64,000 bases of DNA from a virus (lineage: Duplodnaviria; Heunggongvirae; Uroviricota; Caudoviricetes), in IMG/VR virus record IMGVR_UViG_2939127364_000001; one strand, 5' to 3'. Numbering within the stretch: the first letter of the stretch is position 1; each line of letters begins with the position of its first letter. Of this stretch, positions 16,312 to 38,648 are shown piece after piece. The notes below the pieces were generated by a model. That model worked only from the letters and a program-made list of their open reading frames with translations. It had not been told where the DNA came from and ran no database searches. The position numbers and the translations under genes were made by a program.

Positions 16312-16337
16312 TTGAATAACCTTAGATAATTACTTAC

Positions 16338-17594
16338 CTATCGAGAACCACCAAGAATAACACGGTTTTTGACTGGATACCTACGATGTACTGGATAGCC
16401 CAATGCGTCTGCACTATGCTCAATGCCACCTGTCTTATCCATATCTCGTGTTCCAGGCTTGTAGATGACTTTTTCCAGTGAATCAATCAAATGCTTGCAC
16501 TTCGGATCGATATACAGCCGGATATCTCCAGATGCGGTCATCAGCATTCGGTTAACAGCATTAACACGATCCGCAATTGGCGGGTGCTTTTTCGAATAAT
16601 CGACACGTAAGAATCCCTTCTCTTTGAATATGTCGACGTCAGACTCCCCGCGAGCATGTTGGCGATAAGCACCTGCCGGATCTGGAAATACCGTTATCTG
16701 TGATTTCCAGCGCCAGAAGCGTCTCTCAAGCTCATCACAAACCTCTGCCGTGTTAGAGGAAAAGAGCACCAATTCATCAATTGCCCATAGCTCACCATTT
16801 GGCTGAGGTTGCAAAATTACTGAAGACATCGGGTCAATGTTGAAGTCCTGCCCTACCCATATAGGCAACCGAGGGTTGAACTGAAGCGGTTTTACATGCA
16901 CGTTACGATCGAACGGGTAGTAAACGCGCCCGGACATGTTCTCAAAGCTCGCCAGGTACTCCTGAGCGAACGATTTCGGGTCCATATCGTTCTTAGCAGC
17001 TTCAATTTCCGCCGTAGGTACAAACGGAGAATCGGCAGTTACAAACTGCCAGCTCTTCCACTGTCCCTTTCTTTGCAGCTCTACGTTCTGGCCTATCGTC
17101 CACAGTTTGTGAAATTCCGAGAAGCCTTTTGGCGTACCAATGATCAGTGCACCGCCGCGTGTCGATGAAAGAGTAGGTCGTAACACCTTGTACCAGGTGT
17201 CAGCCTTCATATCCTGAAATTCATCAAGCACTACAAAATGCAACGCTACGCCGCGCAGAGTGTCAGGCTTATCAGCACCTTTGAGGGCGATCTCCGAACC
17301 GTTCTTCAACACGATTGTCATCGTGGTGTCGTTCTTTTTCCTAACCCACTTACGAGGCAGAACTTCCTGTAGATCGTCCCACAAAATCTGGCGAGCCATC
17401 TGGTAAGTAGGAGCGACATACCAGACCCTTTGCTTTTTTTCCTTTGCCGCCGCACGAATAATAGTGGAGATCGACAACCGGGATTTTCCCCAGCGTCGAC
17501 CAGCACAAACAACTTTAAATCGATGCGGAGACTGGAAGACTTTCATCTGTCCAGAATGCAGTTGCACAAGACTGAGCGAGGACGGGATTGCCAT
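16338..17594 (-). CDS. Terminase large subunit
   Basis: Walker A-like VVCAGRRWGKS, Walker B-like HFVVLDEF, C-terminal nuclease-like half with conserved acidic residues. Confidence 0.75.
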   Translation of the reverse strand: MAIPSSLSLVQLHSGQMKVFQSPHRFKVVCAGRRWGKSRLSISTIIRAAAKEKKQRVWYVAPTYQMARQILWDDLQEVLPRKWVRKKNDTTMTIVLKNGSEIALKGADKPDTLRGVALHFVVLDEFQDMKADTWYKVLRPTLSSTRGGALIIGTPKGFSEFHKLWTIGQNVELQRKGQWKSWQFVTADSPFVPTAEIEAAKNDMDPKSFAQEYLASFENMSGRVYYPFDRNVHVKPLQFNPRLPIWVGQDFNIDPMSSVILQPQPNGELWAIDELVLFSSNTAEVCDELERRFWRWKSQITVFPDPAGAYRQHARGESDVDIFKEKGFLRVDYSKKHPPIADRVNAVNRMLMTASGDIRLYIDPKCKHLIDSLEKVIYKPGTRDMDKTGGIEHSADALGYPVHRRYPVKNRVILGGSR

Positions 17595-31899: not shown

Positions 31900-32720
31900 T
31901 TATCTGTCTCAACCTCTCTATAGGCGTTAATGCTCACTCCTTCCAGAATGTTCTATACGGCGACTATTTCTGTTGGTGAATTGGGTGTGTCGTTCTCTCT
32001 GTCGGTGTAAATGGTTTCGTTCGTTTTGCGGTGGTTCTTCTGTGGGGTGTTCTCGTCGTTTTGGTGATTGTTCTTCTCCGTCTATGGAGTAATGGCAGGT
32101 GGGCGATTCCTTTCGTTATTGTGTTTGAGTTGTTTGTCTGGAGTGTGTGAAAGGCTTTTGTAGTTATTCGTGTATTGGGTAATGGCGTTTCCCGTGATTG
32201 TTATGTTTCGTGTCTTTTGGGATTGAGAGAAACCTTGCGGTTACAGGCTTCGTTGGGGTTTCAGTGATTCTGGTGTTTCTTCGCTGTTTGGGTAATGGCG
32301 TGTCGTGGGTATCGCGCGTATGAATGTTTTCGGATTGCCTGTGAAAGTTAGGTTGGTTGTCCGGTAGCCTGGGAAGAAGAGGTGGGTCTTTTCGGTAGCC
32401 TGCCATAAAGAGGTTGGTTGTTTTGGGGAATGACATGTGTGTTATTTAGTTGTTTTGTTATGCCTGAAAATAAGTTGTTTATATGGTTGTGTAACGCAAC
32501 GGGAACGATTTTGAGCGTGTGTTTTTGTTGGTAGTGTGTTGGATCGTCTGTGGTGAAAATTGGACGCTGTGGCGCTGTCTGCTGCGTAGAATTACGGGTA
32601 TAAGCAGTGATGTGTGAAAACGTCAATTTTTTAGACCAAATCGGGTGAAAGCGTTGATGTTTCGTTGATCTGTTATTCAGTTGTTTTCTTATTGGTATAA
32701 ACAACTATAACCTATTGATA
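31900..32720. other. Noncoding tract of about 0.8 kb, strongly G+T-rich on the plus strand, with internal direct repeats
   Basis: Few A/C on the plus strand; repeated GGTAATGGCG-containing units near 32086, 32176, 32290 and CGGTAGCCTG..AAGAGGTKGG near 32362 and 32393; only low-complexity ORFs. Confidence 0.5.
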
Positions 32721-32823
32721 TTTAAGGATGTGATTGCAGGTATAGAATGGGGGTAGTGGCGATCAACGGATTCTTATAGAAAAGAATCAAATTGTGACCG
32801 CCATTATCAATGAGTTGCAACCG

Positions 32824-33393
32824 TTAGTTGTTCAGATAAACATTTGGAACACGGACGTAGAAGTTCCTGTCGCCGGTAAGTTCCAGAGTAATGTTAATGT
32901 CATTACCATTGTCTAGTGTAGCCGTTGCTCTATAGAACTTATCCGTCACCTTGTCCTCTATTGTCACCTTCATACATTTTGGTGCAGTCGAACCGTTATT
33001 CTCTTTCAGAATGGTCGTTACGAGAGGACAAGCCGCTTCTTCAAGAGCAACCTCTTTCTGGTGTGGGATACCGATGAAGATGTTACCAGCAAGCAACGCG
33101 ACGATTACGATAAAAGGAAGTCGACTGCCTTTTGTAACGGTGGCACGTTTCCAGAGATAGACCGGAAGGAGAAATACTCCCCACAGGATGGCCGGTGGTT
33201 CATACCCTGCATCAGACAATGCCATTCTGTCAGCCACCAGAAAGCCGAGTCCAGCGACTCCACCTATCACTATTGCATAATTCAAATACTCATCTGGCGG
33301 CGCTCCAAAGAAGAGAGGCAGTAAAGCTAGAAGCCACGCATAAGCATTATTCAGAGGTTTTGTTTGTTGGTTCTGGGTTTCCATCACATCCAT
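32824..33393 (-). CDS. Inner-membrane protein with C-terminal soluble domain
   Basis: N-terminal hydrophobic helices (WLLALLPLFFG, IVIGGVAGLGFLV, ILWGVFLLPVYLW, FIVIVALLAGNIFIGI). Confidence 0.4.
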   Translation of the reverse strand: MDVMETQNQQTKPLNNAYAWLLALLPLFFGAPPDEYLNYAIVIGGVAGLGFLVADRMALSDAGYEPPAILWGVFLLPVYLWKRATVTKGSRLPFIVIVALLAGNIFIGIPHQKEVALEEAACPLVTTILKENNGSTAPKCMKVTIEDKVTDKFYRATATLDNGNDINITLELTGDRNFYVRVPNVYLNN

Positions 33394-33767: not shown

Positions 33768-34067
33768 TTACCATTGCCAGCACTCTAGCCCTTCAACGAC
33801 CGGTGCACCACAATCAAAATGTACAGAGTCAAAGCCTACATCAAGTACTTTCTGAATGTTAGCAATCGCGCCTTCGGATATACCATATCGACGCAAGTCC
33901 TCTTTCCAGACATCATCCTGTAACCCGGCGTGGACAATACAACCGCCATCAATTTGTGAAACCCAATCCAGCTCATTGCTTGCGATCATGAATCGGCGAG
34001 CATCTTCCTCTGATGTATGAGATGAACTGATCAATGCCACCTGGTAGGCTTGGGTAATGTTCAACAT
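33768..34067 (-). CDS. Hypothetical protein (two palindrome copies upstream)
   Basis: 99 aa; GGAG RBS; palindrome copies at about 34080-34095 and 34130-34146. Confidence 0.4.
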   Translation of the reverse strand: MLNITQAYQVALISSSHTSEEDARRFMIASNELDWVSQIDGGCIVHAGLQDDVWKEDLRRYGISEGAIANIQKVLDVGFDSVHFDCGAPVVEGLECWQW

Positions 34068-34079
34068 TTCAACAACTCC

Positions 34080-34146
34080 GAAACAATTTGTTTTCTTATG
34101 TGGCTTATTATCTCAATCAACAAAAGGTAGAAAACAAATTGTTTTA
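34080..34146 (-). promoter_or_regulatory. Tandem pair of palindromic motif copies about 50 bp apart
   Basis: GAAACAATTTGTTTTC (34080-34095) and GAAAACAAATTGTTTTA (34130-34146), upstream of the 33768-34067 gene and just before the metG 3' end. Confidence 0.5.
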
Positions 34147-34179
34147 GGGTTTGTTAAAGTCAGAAGGGGTTGTGTCTAT

Positions 34180-34210
34180 ATGAAAATGCCCAGCGTGTTG
34201 CCGGGCATTG
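34180..34210 (-). terminator. metG intrinsic terminator (probable)
   Basis: Imperfect hairpin ATGCCCGGC...GCTGGGCAT followed by TTTTCAT on the minus strand, 20-50 nt after the metG stop. Confidence 0.45.
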
Positions 34211-34228
34211 CGAACAGAGGTTGTTTAA

Positions 34229-36262
34229 TTACTTAACCTGGTGGCCTGGTTTAGCACCAGCATCCGGGCTTAACAGGAAGATATCTTTCCCGCCGGGGCC
34301 AGCAGCCATCACCATGCCTTCGGAGATACCGAAGCGCATTTTACGCGGAGCCAGGTTAGCCACCATAATGGTGTGACGACCAATCAGTGCCTGTGGGTCT
34401 GGATAAGCAGAACGGATGCCTGAGAAGACATTACGCTTTTCACCACCGAGATCCAGTGTCAGACGCAGCAGTTTGTCAGAACCTTCGACAAACTCCGCGT
34501 TTTCAATCAGCGCCACACGCAGGTCAACTTTGGCGAAGTCGTCAAAGGTGATGGTTTCCTGAATCGGGTCGTCAGCCAGTGGGCCAGTTACCGGTGCAGC
34601 TGTGGCTTTCACTTCTTCTTTGGATGCTTCCACCAGTGCTTCCACCTGTTTCATATCGATACGGTTATACAATGCCTTGAACGGATTCACTTTATGGCCC
34701 AGCAGCGGTTGCTGGATACCATCCCAGGTCAGTTCTGTATTCAGGAATGCTTCTGCACGTTCAGTCAGTTTCGGCAGTACCGGTTTCAAGTACGTCATCA
34801 GCACGCGGAACAGGTTAATGCCCATAGAGCAAATCGCCTGCAGATCGGCATCGCGTCCTTCCTGCTTCGCCACCACCCACGGAGCCTGTTCATCGACATA
34901 TCGGTTAGCCAGGTCAGCCAATGCCATGATTTCACGGATAGCTTTACCAAATTCGCGGCTTTCCCATGCTTCGCCAATCACTTCAGCGGCATCAGTAAAG
35001 GTTTTGTACAGTTGCGGGTCAGCCAGTTCGCTTGCCAGCACGCCGTCAAAACGCTTGTTGATAAAGCCTGCATTACGGGAGGCCAGGTTAACCACTTTGT
35101 TCACGATATCGGCATTCACGCGCTGAACGAAATCCTCCAGGTTGAGATCGATATCATCAATGCGCGAAGAGAGTTTCGCAGTGTAGTAGTAACGCAGGCT
35201 GTCGGCGTCAAAATGATTCAGCCAGGTGCTGGCTTTAATAAAGGTGCCGCGAGACTTGGACATCTTCGCGCCGTTCACCGTCACATAGCCGTGAACAAAC
35301 AGGTTGGTCGGCTTGCGGAAGTTGCTGCCTTCCAGCATGGCAGGCCAGAACAGGCTGTGGAAGTAAACAATATCTTTACCGATGAAGTGGTACAGCTCGG
35401 CTGTGGAGTCTTTCTTCCAGTATTCATCGAAGCTGGTGGTATCGCCGCGCTTGTCGCACAGATTCTTGAAGGAACCCATGTAGCCAATCGGCGCGTCCAG
35501 CCAGACGTAGAAATATTTGCCCGGCGCGTTCGGAATTTCAAAACCGAAGTAAGGCGCATCGCGGGAGATATCCCACTGTTGCAGGCCGGATTCAAACCAC
35601 TCCTGCATTTTGTTCGCCACCTGCTCCTGCAACGCACCGCTGCGGGTCCATGCCTGCAACATTTCGCTGAAAGAGGGCAGATCAAAGAAGAAGTGTTCGG
35701 AATCACGCATTACCGGGGTAGCGCCAGAAACCACCGATTTCGGCTCGATCAATTCAGTCGGGCTATATGTTGCGCCGCAGACTTCACAGTTATCGCCGTA
35801 TTGATCTGGCGCTTTACATTTCGGGCAGGTGCCTTTCACAAAACGATCCGGCAGGAACATGCCTTTTTCCGGGTCGTACAACTGAGAGATAGTGCGGTTT
35901 TTAATAAAACCGTTCTCTTTCAGGCGAGTATAGATAAGCTCAGACAGCTGGCGGTTCTCTTCGCTGTGCGTCGAGTGATAGTTGTCATAGCTGATGTTAA
36001 AGCCTGCGAAATCAGTCTGGTGTTCCTGACTCATTTCGCCAATCATCTGCTCCGGTGTGATACCAAGCTGCTGTGCTTTCAGCATGATCGGCGTACCGTG
36101 GGCATCGTCGGCACAGATGAAATTAACCTCGTGGCCGCGCATTCGCTGGTAACGAACCCAGACATCAGCCTGGATGTGCTCCAGCATATGGCCGAGGTGG
36201 ATTGAGCCGTTAGCGTACGGCAGCGCGCACGTCACCAGAATTTTCTTCGCGACTTGGGTCAT
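34229..36262 (-). CDS. metG: Methionine--tRNA ligase
   Basis: 677 aa from [29 protein letters not shown] (HIGH motif), KMSKS present, C-terminal tRNA-binding domain; near identical to the E. coli MetG I know. Track ORF is an N-terminally over-extended version. Confidence 0.95.
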
Positions 36263-36419
36263 AGTAGGCATTACTTCTTTGTAGTGAAAAGGGGCTTGAT
36301 AGTAACAAAATGGCCTTATGTCTGCCATGTGATAACAGCATTTCTCATAAATGATTAAATGTCGTAGCTGGAGTACACTACAAGGCGACAATTGCGCAAA
36401 TTAAAATAAAGGAGACGGG

Positions 36420-37520
36420 ATGAGCGAGTCCAAATCGCCGGATGCCCTGAGAGCAATGGTAGCCGGTACGCTGGCTAATTTTCAGCACCCAACCCTGAAA
36501 CACAACCTGACTACGCTTAAAGCGTTACACCATGTTGCGTTGATGGATGACACACTGCATGTCGAACTAATCATGCCTTTCGTGTGGAATAAGCCTTTTG
36601 AAGACCTGAAAGAGCAATGTAGTGGTGATCTGCTCCGTATCACTGGCGCAAAGGCTATTGACTGGAAGCTGTCGTACAACATTGCCACGCTTAAGCGCGT
36701 CAAAAACCAACCAGGCATTAATGGCGTTAAGAACATTATCGCCGTCAGCTCAGGCAAGGGCGGCGTGGGTAAATCCTCCACGGCGGTAAACCTGGCACTG
36801 GCGTTGGCTGCTGAAGGTGCGAAAGTTGGTATTTTGGATGCCGATATCTATGGTCCATCAATTCCAACCATGCTGGGCGCGGAAAACCAACGTCCAACCT
36901 CACCTGACGGTACTCACATGGCACCTATCATGTCTCATGGCCTGGCAACCAACTCTATTGGTTATCTGGTCACCGACGACAATGCAATGGTGTGGCGTGG
37001 ACCGATGGCCAGCAAGGCGCTGATGCAGATGTTGCAGGAAACTCTATGGCCTGATCTGGACTATCTCGTTCTCGATATGCCGCCGGGCACTGGTGATATT
37101 CAGTTGACGCTGGCGCAGAACATTCCTGTAACTGGTGCGGTTGTGGTAACTACGCCGCAAGACATCGCGCTGATCGATGCGAAGAAAGGCATTGTGATGT
37201 TCGAAAAAGTCGAAGTGCCGGTACTGGGTATCGTCGAAAACATGAGTGTGCATATTTGCAGTAACTGCGGTCATCACGAGCCAATTTTTGGCACCGGTGG
37301 CGCACAGAAACTGGCCGAGAAATACAACACGCAGTTGTTAGGCCAAATGCCACTTCATATCTCTCTTCGTGAAGATCTGGATAACGGAACACCAACCGTT
37401 ATTAGTCGTCCAGATAGCGAATTTACGGCTATTTATCGTGACCTCGCAGATCGCGTTGCCGCCCAAATGTATTGGCAAGGTGAAGTAATACCTGGCGAAA
37501 TCGCATTCCGCGCAGTGTGA
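36420..37520 (+). CDS. apbC: Fe-S cluster carrier ATPase ApbC/Mrp
   Basis: P-loop SGKGGVGKSST, Mrp/NBP35 CxxC motif (CSNCGHH); divergent from metG as in E. coli. Confidence 0.95.
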   Translation: MSESKSPDALRAMVAGTLANFQHPTLKHNLTTLKALHHVALMDDTLHVELIMPFVWNKPFEDLKEQCSGDLLRITGAKAIDWKLSYNIATLKRVKNQPGINGVKNIIAVSSGKGGVGKSSTAVNLALALAAEGAKVGILDADIYGPSIPTMLGAENQRPTSPDGTHMAPIMSHGLATNSIGYLVTDDNAMVWRGPMASKALMQMLQETLWPDLDYLVLDMPPGTGDIQLTLAQNIPVTGAVVVTTPQDIALIDAKKGIVMFEKVEVPVLGIVENMSVHICSNCGHHEPIFGTGGAQKLAEKYNTQLLGQMPLHISLREDLDNGTPTVISRPDSEFTAIYRDLADRVAAQMYWQGEVIPGEIAFRAV

Positions 37521-37556
37521 TAAAAGGCGGTGCATTGCACCGCCTAATCAGTTCTC

Positions 37557-37946
37557 CTACATCACGGGACAATCATCAAACTCGCCACTTCTTGCGTCGT
37601 TGATAATGTGAGTGATCACACCAAACACGGCATTGCTGCCCGTGCATCCATCGTCATCCTTTGGCAATGCTTCCTTCTTACCGGTTCTTAAATCCTCCAG
37701 ATGCTGACGTGGGTACTTCCGGTATCTTTTTACGCGATATTCCCCATCCAGAGCGCATACAAGCAGAGAACCATCAACCGGGGTAAGTGAGGAATCGACC
37801 ACCAGCAATGCACCCTGTAATATTCCCTCACGATGATGACTATCAGCTGCCCTCATGAAGTAGGTCGCTGAAGGATGTCTAATTATCTGCTGATCAAGAG
37901 AAATACGGCTCTCAGCATAATCCGCCGCAGGAGAAGGGAAGCCCAT
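37557..37946 (-). CDS. UmuD'-like S24 peptidase-fold protein (HumD-like, lacks the UmuD N-terminal arm)
   Basis: MGFPSPAADYAESRISLDQQIIRHPSATYF aligns with UmuD from Gly25 (the UmuD' N-terminus); Ser in AADSHH and Lys in YRVKRY at catalytic positions; LexA box 19 nt upstream. Confidence 0.7.
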   Translation of the reverse strand: MGFPSPAADYAESRISLDQQIIRHPSATYFMRAADSHHREGILQGALLVVDSSLTPVDGSLLVCALDGEYRVKRYRKYPRQHLEDLRTGKKEALPKDDDGCTGSNAVFGVITHIINDARSGEFDDCPVM

Positions 37947-37964: not shown

Positions 37965-37984
37965 TACTGTTTATCCATACAGTA
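37965..37984 (-). promoter_or_regulatory. LexA (SOS) box upstream of the UmuD'-like gene
   Basis: TACTGTTTATCCATACAGTA (CTGT-N8-ACAG) 19 nt upstream of ATG, followed by GAGGTG RBS. Confidence 0.7.
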
Positions 37985-38044: not shown

Positions 38045-38296
38045 TTATTTTTTGGCTATATCTTCTTTCTGATATACCGGATCGTTTCCTTTTGGCAGCA
38101 GGAGGCTTAACTGCCGGTAGTGCCGTAGCCGTTCCATGAAATAGGTGCGCAGGTTCTCAGGTTGCTCACGGGCTACCTGTTCCGCTATGACGGGTATGTT
38201 CAATCGCTCTTTGTAGGCAACCCCCCTGGCAGCCAGGTCAACGTTAACTTTATTCCTTTCTTCCTGGCTTTTGGCTGCTATGTTCCAGTTGCTCAT
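38045..38296 (-). CDS. Hypothetical small protein
   Basis: 83 aa ORF between the hsdM promoter region and the UmuD'-like gene. Confidence 0.3.
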
Positions 38297-38648
38297 GTTT
38301 AAGGCTCACATTTCCAGATGGTATTCTGAACACCCGTACCAGGCGCAAGATGAGGGTTAGCGTTCGCGCTATGCAGATATACAGCTTTAGACTTTCCGTA
38401 TTGCTGACAGGCTTTATCTGCGTTTTTTGGCAGGCTATCCAAGCCAATACCAGCCATCGAACTGGATGCTAACCTTTTCACCGTCATTGTATTGCACCAT
38501 CGCACACCCAGACATAGCTAAAATCGCACCGACAATACCGCTTTTCCAAAAAGCTCTAATTAGGTCATTCGTTACCTAATGTCCGAACTGCTAAAGCATC
38601 CAAGTTGCTGTAGAATCACATCCAATTACTTAAACCTGAAATAAGTGG

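Follow-up and report, generated by a model that had tools for sequence, protein, structure and literature searches.

An apparently old capture of metG and apbC by SSU5-type phage-plasmids of Escherichia coli, with a diverged apbC and a host-like metG

We analyzed a 64,000-nt stretch of Caudoviricetes DNA (IMG/VR record IMGVR_UViG_2939127364_000001; hereafter the window), in which metG, encoding methionine-tRNA ligase (methionyl-tRNA synthetase, MetRS), and apbC (mrp), encoding an Fe-S cluster carrier ATPase, lie between phage-like genes. The window was found to be part of a phage-plasmid of the SSU5 supercommunity, of the kind represented by Cyrano, pLF82 and pECOH89, and sequence comparison indicated that the 3.3-kb gene pair descends from an enterobacterial chromosomal metG-apbC locus. 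The comparisons further argue strongly for a single old capture in the ancestor of the sublineage, after which metG and apbC appear to have taken separate paths. Both genes have been kept intact over a long time and are under selection; transcription of apbC occurs in the plasmid state, and metG recombines with the host copy. The explanation that we favor overall, with a probability of about 0.6, is that an old capture gave rise to a selected cassette, which would act as a lysogeny-expressed accessory module (a 'moron') that adds enzyme capacity.

The SSU5 supercommunity of phage-plasmids has been described by Pfeifer et al. 2021 (PMC7969092), and two apbC-carrying E. coli phage-plasmids were assigned to the pSLy3 group of those authors (PMC12429562). 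When a 20-kb query around the gene pair was searched, closed circular records of E. coli, the majority 106-120 kb in length, covered 91-94% of it at 96-98% identity, and the region was found on closed circular plasmids of ~110 kb with a coverage of 94-100% and an identity of 96-100%. The plasmids pYLMB30c and pGD31-F25 carry, around metG-apbC, genes for the major capsid protein, portal, large terminase, ParB, a DEAD-box helicase and nucleotide metabolism, and their portal/terminase/capsid region was 98.5% identical to the window at 12.7-19.6 kb. Both flanks of the gene pair, which the original prediction had described as phage-like, match closed plasmids of this type. In the window itself, ParB-family genes were recognized by 97% synteny with annotated relatives, and repA was not located within the window. 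Over positions 34100-37600, the window was 100% identical to pGD31-F25 and 95.4-98.3% identical to the phages Cyrano (= pLF82), CMS-2020a (two records) and PhiR41_1.

The portal/terminase backbone was detected in 236 of 5,426 complete E. coli genomes, exclusively on plasmids and with 0 chromosomal occurrences. The metG-apbC segment was found at 225 plasmid places, and 217 records, all E. coli plasmids of 100-126 kb, matched it at an identity of at least 95%. PLSDB held 204 near-full matches to the segment, almost all from Escherichia and non-mobilizable. The same junctions flank the cassette in the four phage records and in about 217 E. coli plasmids that were closed independently of one another, and about 217 of about 236 phage-plasmids bear it; it is a fixed, already annotated feature of the phage-plasmid lineage and is not peculiar to the window. 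These shared junctions bear out the proposal, made from the window alone, that a host segment was captured inside a single mobile element. Additionally, the plasmid copy of metG-apbC was 10-12% diverged from every E. coli chromosomal copy (about 5,400), and this divergence makes a mis-join with the host's own locus impossible.

The two proteins were identified by NCBIfam equivalog cut-offs, plus Pfam. MetG scored 1019.8 bits against NF001100 (cut-off 587) over residues 4-677, passed TIGR00398 and TIGR00399 too, and matched PF09334, PF19303 and PF01588, the last at residues 581-674. Its MetRS motifs were intact, namely HLGH at residue 22, KMSKS at residue 333 and the zinc knuckles CPKC at 146 and CEVC at 159; a 720-aa open reading frame (ORF) reaching 36391 in the ORF list is merely an upstream TTG extension of metG. 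ApbC scored 759.3 bits against NF008669 (cut-off 348) and 342 bits against PF10609, and its deviant Walker A motif (GKGGVGKS at residue 112) and cluster-binding CSNC (a CxxC motif, at residue 280) were also intact. The genes are back to back with a spacer of 157 nt and in the same order as at the chromosomal locus, so the native divergent arrangement noted earlier was confirmed.

The overall similarity to E. coli K-12 was found to differ between the two genes. The window metG was 98.8% identical to that of K-12 in amino acids and 93.7% in nucleotides, with a synonymous divergence (dS) of 0.32, whereas apbC was 94.5% identical in amino acids and 81.9% in nucleotides, with a dS of 1.56; the corresponding dS values between K-12 and Salmonella were 0.98 for metG and 1.35 for apbC. 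The two proteins had been described as near identical to those of E. coli, which is true of MetG but overstates the case for ApbC. The plasmid MetRS differs from the K-12 enzyme by 8 conservative substitutions, most of which are common to the Salmonella and Citrobacter enzymes compared, and its 98.8% identity suggests that it is an aminoacylating enzyme. The GC content across metG-apbC was 0.49-0.52, in comparison with 0.40-0.47 in the flanks.

The boundaries of the cassette were sharp. Homology to the K-12 chromosome was confined to window positions 34228-37516, which extend from the metG stop codon to 4 nt short of the apbC stop codon, and no trace of the chromosomal yeh neighbours was found at either end of the cassette in the alignment to K-12. 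The left junction lies within 34150-34227, where SSU5 homology stops (34149) and host homology begins (34228), in agreement with the predicted position of about 34150-34180; on the right, the junction coincides with the stop codon of apbC (37520). SSU5 matches only 34101-34149 in this region (50 nt), the last SSU5-homologous stretch before the cassette. The DUF5983 gene to the left adjoins metG in a second variant of the cassette too (contigs L131-L134, described below).

A hairpin was found close to each junction. The one beyond metG (34185-34209) had a fold energy of -20.1 kcal/mol and a z-score of -4.7, and it showed no homology to the K-12, Salmonella or Citrobacter sequence downstream of metG. 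The one between apbC and humD (37525-37545) had a fold energy of -19 kcal/mol and a z-score of about -4.4 on both strands and was element-specific and non-chromosomal by alignment. A consensus promoter/terminator scan gave counts that were not above those of shuffled sequence, and it missed these junction hairpins, which were later confirmed by folding. The cassette is trimmed exactly to two genes and their shared divergent control region, with element-specific hairpins at both ends. Within the control region, candidate -10 elements were TACTAT on the metG side and TACACT/TAAACT on the apbC side, with AAGGAG as a ribosome-binding site; this promoter assignment is a provisional one. The apbC-proximal half of the spacer was of the Salmonella/Citrobacter type and not of the K-12 type. 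Rfam and tRNA scans of the whole window gave no matches, and a search for tandem repeats around the cassette revealed nothing relevant.

Comparison of apbC with its chromosomal relatives indicated that the capture is ancient and not recent. In a donor scan that took one genome per species and listed at least 80 enterobacterial loci, the best chromosomal apbC among the 80 species loci listed was that of C. werkmanii, with a DNA identity of 82.6%, and the plasmid gene was about as distant from E. coli as Salmonella or Citrobacter are. No chromosomal ApbC protein closer than about 95% was found in a search of 5.8 billion proteins. In the neighbour-joining tree, the plasmid apbC copies clustered in a single clade (bootstrap 100), which had a long branch and was the sister group of Escherichia (bootstrap 94). 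The GC content at third codon positions (GC3) was 0.51-0.53 in the plasmid copies and 0.62 in E. coli K-12; it has drifted towards the GC content of the element, which is 46.8%. Two apparent donors, found as '99%' hits in Escherichia sp. E1V33 and in 'E. hormaechei' B56, were ruled out, as both proved to be ordinary Escherichia-type loci with ~88% DNA identity.

The protein search also revealed a 366-aa 'E. coli' ApbC (P0074) with 81% identity to that of the window, and it belongs to a second variant of the cassette, which we call PPv2. This variant was found on four contigs of E. coli third-party annotation assemblies (L131-L134; e.g., GCA_021861085.1) and was absent from closed E. coli genomes and PLSDB. 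Its gene order is DUF5983, metG (minus strand), apbC (plus strand), YgiW/BOF, hok, cytochrome c peroxidase and cytochrome b562; the variant shares its left junction with the window, and its upstream genes are 74-82% identical to the early region of the window. The PPv2 ApbC retains the Walker A motif and CSNC and differs from that of the window at 69 residues, including core positions that are invariant across E. coli, Salmonella and the window. It is 79% identical to the E. coli protein, and the apbC DNA is 72.9% identical to K-12, with a GC3 of 0.43 and a ratio of nonsynonymous to synonymous divergence (dN/dS) of 0.064 against the window allele. The two ApbC proteins nevertheless share derived characters, namely an N-terminus (MS[ED]SKSP) that is 3 aa shorter, N57-K58-P59, N303, N322 and M350, and the two genes group together on codon positions 1+2 with a bootstrap of 81. 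The PPv2 metG, in contrast, is 96.9% identical to K-12 and groups with it at a bootstrap of 100. The shared junction and derived residues, the diverged apbC and the K-12-like metG together point to a single old capture, followed by divergence of apbC and homogenization of metG with the host.

The same host-like character was observed in the metG of the other plasmids. Plasmid metG was 94-97% identical to E. coli, its GC3 was 0.61-0.62 as compared with 0.626 in K-12, and in neighbour-joining trees the plasmid alleles were non-monophyletic and interleaved with K-12. In sliding windows, the metG of p7.2.1/pECOH89 reached 97-100% identity to K-12 over 34378-35700, a stretch in which the window allele showed only ~90%. 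A 1,323-nt metG tract of p7.2.1 matched about 1,560 records at an identity of at least 99%, including many chromosomes at 99.2-99.3%, while the 3' 732 nt of the window metG matched only 191 records at an identity of at least 95%. Among the matches listed for these 732 nt, plasmids extended down to 95.4% and chromosomes from 93.2% downwards; no plasmid-type allele of this part, which would have indicated plasmid-to-chromosome transfer, was found on a chromosome among them. These patterns are most simply read as repeated conversion of the plasmid metG by the chromosomal gene of the host; the plasmid metG would have stayed host-like in sequence and composition because it was overwritten time and again by the metG of the resident host.

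Some draft IMG/VR scaffolds (L119 and L124, IMGVR_UViG_2740892421_000017; L106, IMGVR_UViG_2671181056_000013) joined chromosomal yehD-yehE-apbC-metG to phage-plasmid DNA. The hybrid metG in these scaffolds had a plasmid-type 5' part of 1.2 kb and a K-12-type 3' part of 0.8 kb with its flank, and the scaffolds contained gaps. These apparent tandem or hybrid copies are best read as draft-assembly chimeras to which the gene duplication gave rise, or else as rare cointegrates, and they were set aside.

Selection was assessed on six window-type copies of each gene. In apbC, 53 polymorphic nucleotide sites fell in 52 codons, all of them synonymous, and the protein was 100% identical; in metG, there were 169 synonymously varying codons and 7 with an amino-acid change. 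Because the variation in apbC arose within the plasmid clade, it is direct evidence for purifying selection on the plasmid gene. The single clade, the GC3 drift, the two diverged alleles and this strict purifying selection strongly suggest that apbC has been evolving as a gene of the phage-plasmid.

Misson et al. 2023 (PMC9928086) reported that Cyrano is present at 5.5 copies per cell and forms virions, the production of which was induced 39-fold by ciprofloxacin. In the same study, apbC (CYRAN_99) was classed as a moron, with expression 9-fold above the prophage background and a log2(fpkm+5) of 6.35-6.67, where fpkm is fragments per kilobase per million reads (PMC9928086, S1 table); CYRAN_99 is the apbC homologue in the Cyrano record. 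The log2(fpkm+5) of the MetRS gene, CYRAN_100, was 3.85-4.16 in lysogeny broth (LB) and 2.7-3.1 in macrophages (PMC9928086). From normalized counts of 16 for CYRAN_100 and 92 for CYRAN_99, we estimated that the former lies about 1.6-fold above background.

In the explanation that we favor, both genes would be transcribed from their native divergent promoters, independently of the lytic programme, and the pair would constitute a lysogeny-expressed accessory cassette. The capacity for MetRS and for the Fe-S carrier would rise in proportion to the number of plasmid copies (about 5.5 per cell in Cyrano), that for MetRS, which is weakly expressed in lysogens, to a lesser degree than that for the carrier. 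ApbC would be the constitutively expressed partner and might deliver Fe-S clusters to enzymes of the host or of the element. MetRS may be important chiefly after induction, when the heavy demand of the element for thymidylate and methyl groups would compete for folate and methionine; the additional MetRS could help to keep tRNA-Met charged once induction drains the folate and methionine/S-adenosylmethionine pools. The element genes that would draw on those pools encode thymidylate synthase, dihydrofolate reductase (DHFR; dfrA51), DNA methyltransferases and type I restriction-modification. Extra enzyme dosage would be the most likely physiological role of the cassette.

Several points weigh against this explanation. 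The cassette is dispensable for the phage cycle, as it is absent from SSU5, from the E. coli plasmid S56 plasmid B (S56-B), which has an SSU5-like arrangement, and from CP122497.1; in the first two, humD, theta and type I restriction-modification are missing as well as metG and apbC. In CP122497.1, other cargo (IS1, a helix-turn-helix gene, IS3 and a DUF4145 gene) takes the place of the cassette in the interval from the same DUF5983 gene to humD, and the element still persists. Relatives with replacement cargo persist, so the cassette appears dispensable for maintenance as well, and by these comparisons its site is a cargo hotspot. A dosage benefit of metG in the plasmid state is doubtful, because the MetRS transcripts in lysogens are barely above background, and no strong sigma-70 site was found in the metG-apbC spacer by the consensus scan. 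The low dN/dS of metG is partly imported with the converted host tracts and is weaker evidence of selection than that for apbC. As to the age of the capture, E. albertii, E. fergusonii and other Escherichia chromosomes lay outside the loci individually examined in the donor scan, and a closer chromosomal apbC may exist, though the protein search found none; 'old' also cannot be expressed in years, as phage genes can evolve faster than chromosomal ones.

We also considered a related but more specific explanation, in which the cassette is an adaptive module evolving at two speeds, with ApbC as an element-specific Fe-S carrier paralogue and metG kept host-matched by conversion. Here, ApbC, which exists as two alleles 19% apart in protein, might serve element-encoded or stress-related clients, and a host-matched MetRS might fit the tRNA and dimer partner of the current host and be useful when induction drains folate and methionine. 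We regard this as possible but tentative, with clearly lower odds than the favored explanation. If true, it would provide the first demonstration of selection on an aminoacyl-tRNA synthetase of a temperate phage, as well as a natural case in which a viral gene and an essential gene of the host evolve in concert.

It is unlikely that the cassette is a neutral passenger, that is, a host fragment acquired by illegitimate recombination that is functionless in the element and persists by hitch-hiking. The viability of cassette-less relatives (SSU5, S56 plasmid B and CP122497.1 with its IS-rich replacement cargo) and the low MetRS transcript in lysogens would fit a passenger. However, within the plasmid clade, 52 apbC codons varied synonymously and 0 non-synonymously, dN/dS was 0.02-0.06 over saturated dS, the frames and motifs were intact despite divergence that shifted GC3 by 0.1-0.2, and the cassette is near-universal in the sublineage.

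We give equally little credence to the idea that the cassette serves as a recombination handle or an addiction device, with 2 kb of near-identity allowing reversible integration or transduction, or with the host losing its own metG and so coming to depend on the plasmid. Exchange between plasmid and chromosomal metG clearly occurs, and hybrid metG junctions are present in the draft scaffolds described above. Nevertheless, 0 integrated backbones were found in 5,426 complete chromosomes, chromosomal metG is kept in essentially every genome, and no chromosome among the matches listed had the plasmid-type 3' allele of metG; the strict conservation of apbC would also be left unexplained.

Less probable still is protection against a drug or toxin, in which the plasmid MetRS would be a resistant or decoy synthetase or a buffer against a GNAT-type toxin of the element that acts on charged tRNA. 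MupA is a mupirocin-resistant isoleucyl-tRNA synthetase (IleRS), pneumococci have a second MetRS, and mobile second copies of synthetases are classically resistance genes; furthermore, Cyrano encodes a KacT-type acetyltransferase toxin, and the multicopy state raises target dosage. The plasmid MetRS, however, is 98.8% host-identical, with substitutions mostly found in the Salmonella and Citrobacter enzymes compared, and it scored 33 bits against the MupA/MupB models (cut-off 1900), so resistance-type divergence was not observed. The metG gene is continually converted back to the host sequence, which is the opposite of a diverged resistant allele, and no link to a MetRS-directed toxin was found. 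Finally, an artefact, whether a chimeric assembly or two unrelated islands flanking an ordinary chromosomal metG, both raised as alternatives in the original prediction, is excluded: draft IMG/VR scaffolds do join plasmid and chromosomal copies inside metG, and a duplication can confuse short-read assembly, but the same junctions recur in closed plasmids and phage records without the yeh flank, the cassette is diverged from all chromosomal copies, the backbone is found only on plasmids, and the element's motifs lie on both sides.

The features of the cassette and its surroundings are listed in Table 1.

Table 1. Positions of the cassette genes, junction elements and neighbouring genes in the window
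Feature	Position	Strand	Description
DUF5983-family gene	33768-34067	minus	PF19419; backbone gene directly downstream of metG; annotated in relatives
Element-specific regulatory spacer	34067-34158		30-nt inverted repeat; two copies of palindromic AACAAnTTGTTTTCT (34082-34097, plus strand; 34128-34143, minus strand)
Terminator-like hairpin	34185-34209	minus	20 nt past the metG stop; 10-bp stem, then UUUUCAU
metG, methionine-tRNA ligase	34229-36262	minus	ATG start at 36262; 677 aa; full length with C-terminal tRNA-binding/dimerisation domain
Divergent intergenic region	36263-36419		Blocks conserved with chromosomal loci (alignment)
apbC (mrp), Fe-S cluster carrier ATPase	36420-37520	plus	366 aa; N-terminus 3 residues shorter than in the chromosomal protein
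Hairpin between converging apbC and humD	37525-37545		GC-rich 9-bp stem; UUUUAUC next on the minus strand
humD, P1-type UmuD'-like S24 peptidase	37557-37946	minus	NF051876, 219.8 bits; right-hand neighbour
DNA polymerase III theta (hot-like) homologue	38045-38296	minus	NF008207
hsdM, type I restriction-modification	38649-40211	plus	Annotation of relatives, ORFs
hsdS, type I restriction-modification	40208-41527	plus	Annotation of relatives, ORFs
hsdR, type I restriction-modification	41649-44765	plus	Annotation of relatives, ORFs

To the right of the cassette, humD is preceded by a canonical LexA box, TACTGTTTATCCATACAGTA, at 37965-37984, which overlaps a predicted -10 element. The Cyrano humD homologue, CYRAN_98, was reported to rise in macrophages from a log2 value of about 7 to 12.3 (PMC9928086). 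The genes that follow, from 38045 to 44765, are further accessory cargo.

Two kinds of repeated element were found on both flanks, as had been noted at the outset from the same motif families and a long inverted repeat. The motif AACAANTTGTTTTCTT was present 11 times with at most 2 mismatches, where 0.35 occurrences were expected (about 30-fold over-representation), and its copies lie at 18-34 kb and at 46.9-47.7 kb (18268-47690), that is, to the left and to the right of the cassette. The motif probably serves the phage-plasmid as an operator or promoter. The palindrome-containing AACAANTTGTTTTCTT was observed just upstream of leftward early genes, e.g., at a distance of 15 nt from the start of the DUF5983 gene. 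A 34-nt inverted repeat (16323-16356 and 50768-50801; 82% complementary) with the core TTACCTATCGAGAA brackets the cassette region; the arms of this repeat are 34 kb apart, and one of them is at the start of the terminase gene. Additionally, pairs of ~30-nt units (GGTAGCCTG..AGAGGTTGGT) were observed at 28480-28543 and 32358-32424, 3.9 kb apart. The stretch at 32001-33000 showed an extreme strand asymmetry, with a GC skew of +0.34 and an AT skew of -0.30, and it overlaps small hypothetical ORFs annotated in Cyrano (CYRAN_103/104).

Upon comparison with pGD31-F25 and pYLMB30c, the window was found to be only ~75% identical at 51947-56765 (and onward to 64000), whereas the rest of the window showed 96-99% identity. 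Downstream of 51947-56765, SbcC/Rad50-like and phosphoesterase genes were present, as in S56 plasmid B, and no large nrdAB ORF was seen. Because a ~75% module stands amid 96-99% identity and is followed by S56-B-like genes, the element of the window is taken to be a recombinant between sublineages, a mosaic relative rather than a copy of one plasmid. In this part of the window, the DHFR gene at 53617-54093 (minus strand) passed the NCBIfam DfrA51 model with 351.6 bits (cut-off 322) and lies in an operon-like run with genes for thymidylate synthase, an AAA ATPase and a DnaQ-like exonuclease; the presence in phage-plasmids of DfrA51, a gene for trimethoprim resistance, was described recently (PMC12217456). 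A host-like RNase HI homologue at 48584-49228 (minus strand; NF001236, 220 bits) has an N-terminal extension of ~55 residues. This gene is another housekeeping-type cargo and is frameshifted in pGD31-F25.

The existence of the cassette is not new, as it is annotated in hundreds of records and two papers mention its apbC; in one of them (PMC12429562), phage-plasmids are said to have 'acquired the apbC gene'. In the literature searched, no paper was found that pairs SSU5, pLF82, pECOH89 or a phage-plasmid with metG/MetRS or that analyzes the cassette. The unreported part is the ancient capture, the fast-diverging ApbC paralogue and a metG that evolves in concert with the host copy. About 4% of completely sequenced E. 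coli strains bear this backbone, the clinical strains LF82 and ST131 among them, and the cassette is a cheap, testable case for two questions: the contribution of an extra housekeeping enzyme to a prophage or its host and the shaping of an essential host gene by recombination with a mobile copy. In practice, the duplicated metG can yield chimeric draft contigs and ambiguous read mapping or typing at this locus.

A phage-borne aminoacyl-tRNA synthetase had been considered unusual, and our search supports this; apart from the giant phages, few phages have synthetase genes. MetRS was detected by tblastn in 26 of 50,697 phage records, most of which were short unverified fragments (2-20 kb) or mislabelled host contigs; the credible cases were the four phage-plasmids described here, one 274-kb cyanophage and two 635-kb uncultured phages. 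Two further candidates for phages with metG-apbC were rejected. 'Acinetobacter phage MD-2021a' (CAKLQF020000011.1 and CAKLQH020000007.1) consists of chromosomal contigs with dcd, pfs and efflux genes around the pair, and 'Pseudomonas phage Y5' (OQ572407.1) is an unverified, unannotated record that was not convincing; both inflate the apparent count of phage-borne synthetases. The only ordinary-sized temperate phages with a credible MetRS in the phage collection are these E. coli phage-plasmids.

The closest known systems are Cyrano, pECOH89/p7.2.1, pGD31-F25, pYLMB30c, CMS-2020a and PhiR41_1, which share the backbone of the window and carry its cassette at the identical site, with 95-100% DNA identity over 34100-37600. 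The ApbC protein is identical in all Cyrano-type relatives, and MetRS is annotated in the Cyrano record. In Cyrano, Ea22/Eaa-type genes lie to the right of humD, where the window has type I restriction-modification. SSU5 and S56-B share the homologous siphovirus/plasmid backbone and the same organization of the early region with repeated operator-like motifs. The chromosomal locus of Escherichia, Salmonella and Citrobacter has the same gene order, divergent orientation and spacer blocks and encodes full-length proteins with the same motifs; compared with it, the window has ~10 lineage-specific substitutions in ApbC, an 18% diverged apbC DNA, a lower GC3 and element-specific putative terminators.

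More distant comparisons were also made. Jumbo and huge phages, such as the 274-kb Microcystis phage MaAM05 and the uncultured 635-kb phages, encode a MetRS homologue too, but their enzymes show 24-29% identity and occur within the large translation-gene sets of lytic giants, whereas the window represents a temperate element of ~110 kb with a host-matched enzyme. The MupA/MupB IleRS is likewise a mobile second copy of an essential class I synthetase but is strongly diverged from the housekeeping enzyme. To our knowledge, phage P1 carries no synthetase or Fe-S carrier. Its morons humD and hot are host-like accessory genes expressed from their own promoter in a plasmid prophage, and homologues of humD and of the theta gene adjoin the cassette in the window.

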